A stretch of DNA of 14,342 bases, from IMG/VR virus record IMGVR_UViG_2695420539_000017. One strand, 5' to 3'. A model generated the notes under the pieces. That model searched no databases and was not told the DNA's origin. It saw only the letters and a list, made by a program, of their open reading frames with translations. The first letter of the stretch is position 1, and each line of letters begins with the position of its first letter. The DNA is from a virus (lineage: Duplodnaviria > Heunggongvirae > Uroviricota > Caudoviricetes). Both the position numbers and the translations under genes were made by a program. Shown here in pieces: positions 3,667 through 5,593 of this stretch.

Positions 3667-4197
3667 GTGGCAAAAGTTTTTACACAAGAAGAGCGGGAAA
3701 AAATTAAAGGGCAGGTTGTTGAACTCGTACGCCGGAGTGGGCGTGAGACGTTACGGCAACTGGAAGTCAAGACAGGTGCGACAAGATATCTGATGAGCGT
3801 TCTCGCAAGAGAGCTGGTTGCCAGCGGCGATGTATACAACTCTGGTTACGGGTTATTCCCGTCTGAACAGGCGCGTAAGGACTGGCAAAATGCCCGTAAA
3901 AAGCTCTCAAGGGCAAAGCTGAAGGAACCATCTGCGGTTGATCCGGACCTTATCTGGTCATTACCTGACGGAGAAATACGTCGCTACGACAGGCGTCAGA
4001 ACATAATCTGTCGCGAGTGCCGGAAGAGTGAAGTTATGCAGCGCATACTAGCATTCTATCAGGGAAATGCTCGATATTTATTGAAGTGTAGTGGTCAACA
4101 AAAACTGGCCACCGCTTTAGAGTTTTTCCAGTATCGGTTTTCCGATTCATTTGGTGGCAACCCACCGTTATATTCGTGCGGCCTGAGCGCGTTGTAA
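3667..4197 (+). CDS. Hypothetical 140-aa protein whose natural stop was displaced by the IS insertion; current ORF reads 37 extra codons into the IS end
   Basis: GTG start at 3667 with AGGAGG 5 nt upstream. Native coding ends ...TTA TTG AAG (4084-4086); the displaced TGA TGA stops are at 5339-5344 after the duplicated AAG. Confidence 0.55.
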
Positions 4198-5012
4198 TAC
4201 CCAACGATATAGTCCGTTATTTCATGGGCAGCATCGCTGAAGTTCATGTAACCCGTCACCGGTATCCACTCGTTTTTCAGACTCCTGAAGAAGCGCTCCA
4301 TCGGGCTGTTATCCCAGCAATTTCCTCGTCGACTCAGACTCTGTTTGATCTGGTAACGCCACAGTAACTGCCGGAACTGCCTGCTTGTATAGTGGCTGCC
4401 CTGATCGCTGTGGAACATTACCCCGGCTGGTTTACTGCGGATTTCCCAGGCCATTTTCAGCGCTTTGATGGTCAGTCTGCTGTCCGGAGAGAACGACATT
4501 GCCCAACCTACCGGTTTCCTTGCAAACAGGTCGAGAACAACGGCAAGGTATGCCCAACGTTTCCCCGTCCAGATGTACGTCACGTCGCCGCACCATACCT
4601 GATTTGGCTCTGTCACTGCGAACTGCCGCCCAAGGTGATTCGGGATAGTGACATGTTCACGACCACCTCGTTTATAACGGTGCGCAGGCTGCTGGCAACT
4701 GACCAGTCCCAGTTCTTTCATGAGCCTGCCGGCAAGCCAGCGCCCCATTCTGAAGCCTATCAGGGTTGCCATTGTGGCGATGCTTCTTGCTCCGGCCAAA
4801 CCGTGGCTGATGCTATGTAGCTCAAGTACCTGACTGCGTAATACAGCCCGTCTGCCGTCTGGTTTTTCAGGACGGTTTTACCAGTATCTGTAGCTGCTGC
4901 GATGAACCCCGAACACATGGCAGAGTGTGACCACAGGATAATGCGCTCTGAGTTTCCCGATTATCGAGAACTGTTCAGGGAGTCTGACATCAAGAGCGCG
5001 GTAGCCTTTTTT
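4095..5012 (-). pseudogene. IS911 orfB (DDE transposase catalytic frame) interrupted by an in-frame TAA
   Basis: Following the -1 frame from the slippery site gives ...[10 protein letters not shown] then TAA at 4880-4878, then [16 protein letters not shown]... continuing into the DDE region (track ORF 4095..4799). A frameshifted OrfAB product would therefore stop before the catalytic domain. Confidence 0.75.
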
Positions 5013-5263
5013 AATATTTCATTCTCCATTTCAATGCGTTGTAGCTTTTTCCTCAGCTCACGTATTTCGATTTGTTCTGGTGTTATCGGAGAGGCTTTTG
5101 GTGTTTTGCCCTGACGCTCATCACGCAGTTGTTTGACCCATCTTGTCATTGTGGAAAGGCCGATATCCATAGCTTTGGCGGCATCTGCCACCGTGTAGTT
5201 CTGGTCAACAACCAGTTGAGCGGATTCGCGTTTAAACTCTGCGCTGAAATTTCTTTTTTTCAT
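4961..5263 (-). CDS. IS911 OrfA (HTH regulator / N-terminal part of OrfAB transposase), 100 aa
   Basis: ATG at 5263-5261; product [53 protein letters not shown]...[11 protein letters not shown] matches IS911 OrfA as I recall it. The track ORF 4961..5299 is an upstream extension. Confidence 0.9.
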
Positions 5264-5593
5264 TGGAGCACCTGTGTTGTTCTGAGGTGAGCATATCACC
5301 TCTGTTCAGGTGGCCAAATTCAGTGTGCCACTACAAAGTGATGAGATTAAAGTTTATTAGTTCAGATATTGATTGGCTCTTTTGTGGAGTAGGGTAGAGT
5401 TAGTGTGTTTGTCTGCTTGGTGCCAGCAGCGGATATGTTTAACAACAGAAAGCATTCAGCATGGTTAGTGGATTTGCAAAGTGGATTAGGATTTGAGAAA
5501 CTTTGATGAAGTTGTAAAGCTTGTTTCTATAAAAATAGAAATTTAACTAATAGTTAAACACACCTCCAGCTTCATTGAAAAGGATTATTAGCT

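Follow-up and report, generated by a model that had tools for sequence, protein, structure and literature searches.

The DNA analysed was a stretch of 14,342 nucleotides from a viral record of IMG/VR (hereafter, the window), which was part of a Rac/Qin-like lambdoid prophage. The first part of the gene order comprised the DicF RNA, a CI-like repressor, a P22-type Cro, YdaT, a 321/339-aa protein, a DUF977 protein and an insertion sequence (IS). It was followed by an AT-rich island (encoding a SMEK_N protein, a class I methyltransferase and a 231-235-aa protein without family) and, finally, by hok/sok, Rem, DUF968, RusA, Q and three tRNAs. The G+C fraction changed from ~0.50 at positions 3500-4000 to 0.30-0.35 at positions 5500-8250, and the IS was located at this step because the compositional boundary coincides with the end of the DUF977 gene. 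The features found around the insertion, with the evidence for each in brackets, were the following:

3667-4086, plus strand: original coding portion of the DUF977 prophage gene, starting with GTG and 140 codons long (Pfam and RefSeq match)
4084-4086: left copy of the target-site duplication AAG (single AAG in empty sites)
4087-5335, minus strand: IS3-family, IS911-like insertion sequence of 1249 bp, with its transposase genes on this strand (direct sequence reading)
4087-4122: right inverted repeat (IRR), the orfB-distal end, TGTAGTGGTCAACAAAAACTGGCCACC... (inverted-repeat analysis)
4087-4197, plus strand: IS-derived extension of the DUF977 ORF, 36 sense codons and a TAA stop at 4195-4197 (translation)
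4095-5006, minus strand: orfB frame (-1) with the DDE/rve catalytic domain, interrupted by TAA at 4878-4880 (rve PF00665, E = 1.4e-31, plus rve_3)
4791-4880: mosaic tract (all eight differences from the closest full-length copy)
4961-5263, minus strand: orfA, 100 aa, intact, HTH_Tnp_1 (PF01527, E = 6.2e-14)
5006-5012, minus strand: slippery heptamer A AAA AAG, predicted -1 frameshift from orfA to orfB (motif and annotation of 99.4%-identical copies)
5300-5335: left inverted repeat (IRL), adjoining the start of orfA, reverse complement TGTAGTGGCACACTGAATTTGGCCACC... (inverted-repeat analysis)
5336-5338: right copy of the target-site duplication AAG (direct sequence)
5339-5344, plus strand: displaced native stops TGA TGA (sequence and empty-site comparison)

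The protein encoded upstream of the IS was a full-length member of the DUF977 family, as it scored 104.8 bits against PF06163 (E = 4.8e-30; Pfam gathering cut-off of 22.1), with profile positions 1-133 of 134 aligned to residues 1-135. A winged-helix fold has been predicted for DUF977 (PMC2686095). Moreover, no defence-system match was obtained when this protein was scanned with PADLOC. The native gene had the 3′ end TAT TTA TTG AAG, in which AAG is the codon of Lys140 and the encoded protein ends in ...ARYLLK. Since the cut separated the stop from the last sense codon, the DUF977 domain was kept whole. The ORF now present (3667-4197) encoded 176 aa, that is, the 140 native residues plus a tail of 36 residues. 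The tail is translated from the IRR end into the IS, on the strand opposite to the final ~33 codons of orfB. An earlier annotation of this DNA made from the letters alone (the sequence-only reading) had placed the insertion at the last sense codon of the gene, with the TGA TGA stops displaced to 5339-5344 behind the duplicated AAG, and at the boundary between GC-normal prophage DNA and the AT-rich island; all three placements agreed with the present data. It had also proposed that the stop was replaced by 37 codons read from the IS inverted repeat. Of this, the chimeric tail was retained, while its length had to be corrected to 36 sense codons plus TAA, and its origin in the inverted repeat held for the first third or so, the remainder coming from the antisense strand of the orfB 3′ end. 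The tail would represent an accidental by-product of the insertion rather than a functional module, and it is presumably neutral.

The limits of the element were read directly from positions 3400-5700. Its left end begins TGTAGTGGTCAAC... right after the AAG at 4084-4086, whereas its right end ...GCCACTACA closes at 5335 and is followed by the second AAG and the TGA TGA stops; the bases from 4087 were TGTAGTGGTCAACAAAAACTGGCCACC and the terminal bases up to 5335 were GGTGGCCAAATTCAGTGTGCCACTACA. These ends were imperfect terminal inverted repeats (TGTAGTGG...CCACTACA), for which a repeat finder reported arms of 27 nt (4087-4113 and 5309-5335) with 74% complementarity, and 24/36 matches were counted between the 36-nt termini. 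Over all its 1249 bp, the IS was 99.1-99.4% identical to copies carried by many complete E. coli genomes and annotated in RefSeq as 'IS3 family transposase' with 'programmed frameshift'. Two other copies, in strains RM14723 and 536, presented the same ends (TGTAGTGG...CCACTACA) next to 3-bp duplications of their own (ACC and CAC), which fixed the boundaries of the element. Furthermore, the traits that define the IS3 family were found in it: a length within 1.2-1.55 kb, imperfect inverted repeats of the form 5′-TG...CA-3′, a target duplication within 3-4 bp (AAG/AAG in this case), an OrfA with an N-terminal HTH and an OrfB with a DDE (rve) integrase core, together with orfA and orfB predicted to overlap in frames 0 and -1 at an A6G slippery motif. 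A single IS copy was present within the window, according to the ORF list and a repeat search, and no RNA family or frameshift element was detected by Rfam inside 4087-5335.

Among known elements, the closest was IS911 of the IS3 family, represented in Shigella dysenteriae and by IS911A and IS911B of E. coli K-12. IS911 carries 36-bp inverted repeats and encodes an OrfA of 100 aa and, through a -1 frameshift, an OrfAB of 382 aa (PMC2909936). The element of the window resembled it in its length (~1250 bp), its 36-bp imperfect inverted repeats with near-identical tips, its 100-aa orfA with an HTH, its orfB placed in the -1 frame via A AAA AAG, its DDE (rve) catalytic domain and its 3-bp target duplication. 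Thus, the label IS911-like given in the sequence-only reading was appropriate, considering the orfA/orfB organisation, the slippery motif, the HTH_Tnp_1 and rve domains and an identity of 87-98% to IS911A/B of K-12. That identity, measured by segment at the nucleotide level against the IS911B and IS911A fragments annotated in K-12 MG1655, amounted to 97.6% in the first 335 bp, 87.1% over 796 bp and 89.5% over 762 bp. By the ISfinder convention, isoforms share more than 95% DNA identity, and the element fell outside IS911 proper in this comparison with the K-12 fragments. In addition, its tip TGTAGTGG differed from that of the K-12 IS911B (TGAAGTGG...) at position 3 of the IRL, the restored OrfAB had 389 aa instead of the 382 aa of IS911, and the window copy carried a nonsense codon in orfB. 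On account of the segmental identity, the differing tip and the length of OrfAB, the element can be classified as an IS3-family member that is a close relative of IS911, a sister element and not IS911 itself.

The same IS was recognized in E. coli RM14723, 536 and 2015C-4136CT1, among other strains, whose copies were 99.1-99.4% identical over 1249 bp and had identical ends and 3-bp duplications. However, the frameshifted transposase was intact in copies of this type (WP_085948123.1, WP_114311086.1), unlike that of the window, which was interrupted by the stop. PGAP labelled the near-identical copies only as 'IS3 family transposase'. On the other hand, the PGAP label ISEc52, attached to a fragment in E. 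coli QDFD216, designates an element of the same IS911 group that could be aligned throughout, but the identity of ~89% over 917 bp corresponded to a different element, so that ISEc52 was discarded as the identity of this IS.

The window copy departed from the closest full-length copy only in the tract 4791-4880, and the last of the eight differences was the AAA to TAA nonsense change in orfB, the intact copies having AAA (Lys) at positions 4878-4880. From the translation, OrfAB would end after residue 128 instead of 389, ahead of the DDE domain, and the rve domain detected by Pfam was located downstream of the nonsense codon. Given this nonsense codon early in orfB, and if the stop is real, the IS copy as assembled is probably defective and unable to mobilise itself: it would yield OrfA and a truncated OrfAB(1-128), with no catalytic transposase. 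Accepting the draft assembly as correct in 4791-4880, the intact transposase of an autonomous element was absent from it. The whole tract, including the stop, had an exact match on plasmid pZ1322HEC0003-2, within a truncated IS911-type copy that is annotated in RefSeq with an 'internal stop' and which elsewhere is only ~89% identical to the window IS; therefore, the window copy is a mosaic. Two origins can account for such a mosaic: gene conversion involving two elements of the IS911 group, or a short-read assembly that mixed two copies.

The second of these origins was considered in view of a contig of the Logan assembly of run ERR134533, which stops inside the IS at window position 4792, just after 4762, the last left-hand variant position. 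This break suggests that the genome harbours a second, related IS911-type copy, provided that it is read as graph merging with that copy at k = 31, which we take to be the value used in the Logan assembly. With a second copy possible, mis-assignment between copies could have affected the tract 4791-4880, nonsense codon included. However, the same Logan contig joins A4762 with T4791, the left edge of the mosaic, and the two bases together in one contig support a real mosaic at that edge. Moreover, the presence of the same tract and stop in a finished plasmid (pZ1322HEC0003-2) counts against mis-assignment. If gene conversion took place, it may also have carried the inactivating tract from one copy to another.

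The empty site was rebuilt in silico by deleting positions 4087-5338, and the resulting sequence, which reads ...TTGAAGTGATGAG... across the uninterrupted site, was searched in complete E. coli genomes. The rebuilt junction of 361 bp was found with 100% identity in at least 30 complete genomes among the matches listed, and 146 genomes covered at least 80% of it. A longer rebuilt junction of 2000 bp was also found with 100% identity in several genomes, among them those of strains C7, C3, 98-3133 and FDAARGOS_1059. Each of the identical empty sites held a single AAG followed by TGATGA. The AAG repeat is thus a true target duplication and not a chance match, as the deletion of 4087-5338 recreates a sequence found intact in many genomes. 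In E. coli 55989, the empty site lies within a 423-nt CDS annotated in RefSeq as a 140-aa 'DUF977 family protein' (WP_001151218.1), whose start and stop coincided exactly, in a pairwise alignment, with window position 3667 and the TGA that follows AAG, and a gene for a 'SMEK domain-containing protein' follows ~250 bp after it. The exact 140-aa protein was present on ~1000 or more contigs, and its cluster had 3,511 members, nearly all of which, among the members listed, were 140 aa long. A DUF977 gene running past the AAG without an IS appeared in none of the 146 empty sites nor in the 3,511-member cluster.

These comparisons were of the kind proposed in the sequence-only reading, which had expected the related prophages to show the uninterrupted site; this expectation was confirmed by the single AAG and TGATGA at 100% identity over 361 and 2000 bp. 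The 140-aa gene ending in TTA TTG AAG that it had described was likewise corroborated by WP_001151218.1, by the protein cluster and by the Pfam DUF977 match. A native gene extending further, or AAG triplets that were not a duplication, had been named as the results that would contradict it, and neither was observed, since the native gene ends at 140 aa in the annotation and the AAG is single in the empty sites. As for variation among the empty sites, the match to the 2000-bp query was split into two pieces and extended over 2024 bp in strains D1, ECO2947 and 19KM2326N, which implies a length difference of ~24 bp somewhere in the flanks. A targeted insertion beside a sequence resembling the inverted repeat was also tried as an explanation for the site and rejected: the flanking sequence ...TGAAGTGATGAG... 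had 8/12 matches with the IS tip, a score that was equalled in 1977 of 5000 shuffles of an 80-bp target.

The occupied site was very rare. With a 240-bp probe over the left junction, 0 of 5,426 complete E. coli genomes covered both halves. Exact look-up of the 176-aa chimeric protein led to contig CXZR01000013.1 (136 kb) of the assembly GCA_001285665.1 and to the Logan ERR134533 assembly; the protein formed a singleton cluster on two contigs (CTS16630.1 and CTZ15915.1) under the name 'phage protein [Escherichia coli]'. The window was 100% identical to CXZR01000013.1 and to the Logan contig, in the latter case as far as 4792. The assembly GCA_001285665.1 is a short-read draft, and that of Logan is independent and was apparently made from the same isolate. 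Because the flanks were base-identical to the empty sites of other strains, the insertion is recent and confined to one lineage, with one or very few isolates.

Taken together, these data are very probably explained by an ordinary event, in which a single IS911-group copy was recently inserted at the last codon of the DUF977 gene in an E. coli prophage and gave rise to an accidental tail. Under this explanation, an IS911-group (IS3-family) copy would have transposed, in an E. coli isolate, into the Rac/Qin-like lambdoid prophage, presumably through the copy-out/paste-in route, as judged from its family membership and from what is known of IS911. In IS911, this route passes through figure-of-eight and circle intermediates, and the circle junction forms a promoter whose -35 comes from the IRR and whose -10 comes from the IRL. 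Staggered cuts would have been made on the AAG of the last DUF977 residue, their repair leaving this triplet duplicated on both sides, and translation would then run 36 codons into the IS end until meeting TAA. As in other IS insertions that replace a stop, the frame runs mechanically into the IS end up to the first in-frame stop, and nothing distinctive was found with respect to them, apart from the full native domain being kept and the cut being on the last codon. The element is an abundant and known IS3-family member and the insertion is simple, with nothing new in kind and a C-terminal extension that is mechanical.

An assembly artefact, in which contigs ending in repeats were mis-joined while the isolate actually has an intact gene, could be argued from the draft nature of the source assembly, from the second assembly breaking within the IS and from the IS interior being a mosaic of two variants. 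It was nevertheless considered very improbable, as both junctions were present with a perfect 3-bp duplication of a sequence that is single in empty sites, which a mis-join would not produce, and the left junction with 700 bp of the IS was reproduced in the independent Logan contig of ERR134533. Even smaller was the likelihood that the IS belongs to the AT-rich island or delivered it, as the end of a composite transposon or as a boundary element. The IS does abut the island; however, the same DUF977-SMEK junction and the island were found without the IS in ~145 complete genomes (several of them 100% identical over 2 kb), the window contained a single IS copy, and the AAG duplication brackets the IS alone. 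Given that the island was already there at the IS-free sites, the IS did not bring it, and its role as the carrier of the island was ruled out.

A regulatory insertion, altering the expression of the downstream cargo or of Q by blocking read-through or through an outward promoter, was judged unlikely, yet less so than the two preceding alternatives. In its favour, the IS coincides exactly with the G+C step that separates the DUF977 gene from the island, and cro, ydaT, the 321/339-aa gene, DUF977, SMEK and Q are all on the plus strand, so that a read-through transcript would cross 1.25 kb of antisense IS. Against it, a consensus scan of 3500-5700 gave no sigma-70-like promoter, and terminator-like hairpins were at chance level in this region (3 vs. 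2.4 ± 1.5 in shuffles), for which a hybrid or outward promoter or a terminator made by the IS was discarded. Besides, the IRR is the end at 4087 and faces away from the cargo, antisense into the DUF977 gene, the AT-rich region of 255 bp upstream of the SMEK gene was untouched, and the allele was carried by none of the 5,426 complete genomes, an absence that leaves no sign of selection. In IS911, an outward-facing -35 is located in the IRR. Here, a TTGACC hexamer was found on the outward strand of the IRR (4093-4098), pointing leftward and away from the cargo, and direct reading of the flank revealed no good -10 for it. Without an outward promoter or a terminator above chance, an effect on cargo expression, which the sequence-only reading had put forward as possible, has to be regarded as speculation. 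The sole plausible effect on the cargo or Q would be polarity on read-through from the early operon. A non-neutral insertion was likewise considered unlikely, and two routes may be envisaged for it: the IS could insulate the SMEK/methyltransferase island and Q from the early operon of the prophage, or the OrfA and the DNA-binding OrfAB(1-128) of the defective copy could inhibit related IS911-type copies in trans.

The simple and recent insertion accounts for the 176-aa 'phage protein' of this isolate in place of the 140-aa DUF977 protein of its relatives, and it offers a clean natural case of an IS3-family insertion with an exact empty site. It could also serve as a lineage marker for the carrier isolate or isolates, although its importance beyond annotation is small. 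Moreover, it calls for caution with the interior of an IS in a draft assembly, as here it was a mosaic, perhaps produced by gene conversion or by the mixing of copies.

Apart from the insertion, the AT-rich island itself (5594-8181) contained three genes with a G+C content of 30-35%. On the plus strand, it encoded at 5594-6493 a SMEK_N protein of 299 aa (PF21941, E = 2e-22), whose N-terminal ~140 residues matched the PADLOC model 'Aga_REase-PNTD1-PNTD2' (E = 1.4e-20), and on the minus strand, a class I SAM methyltransferase of 219 aa and a protein of 235 aa without family. The island is a candidate for prophage-borne conflict or defence cargo. Furthermore, Rfam identified the sok antitoxin RNA beside hokD (8743-9067), the DicF sRNA (360-411), three tandem tRNA genes at 12200-12446, downstream of Q, which occupies 11294-11989, and the STnc100 sRNA (13220-13392), which are typical of the usual accessory content of a Qin/Rac-like lambdoid prophage. 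Finally, the immunity region at 694-2044 (small ORFs and the CI-like repressor at 1454-1861) showed poor or no alignment with the prophage of E. coli 55989, which elsewhere was 95-99% similar, and this pattern indicates a putative swap of the immunity module by mosaic exchange.
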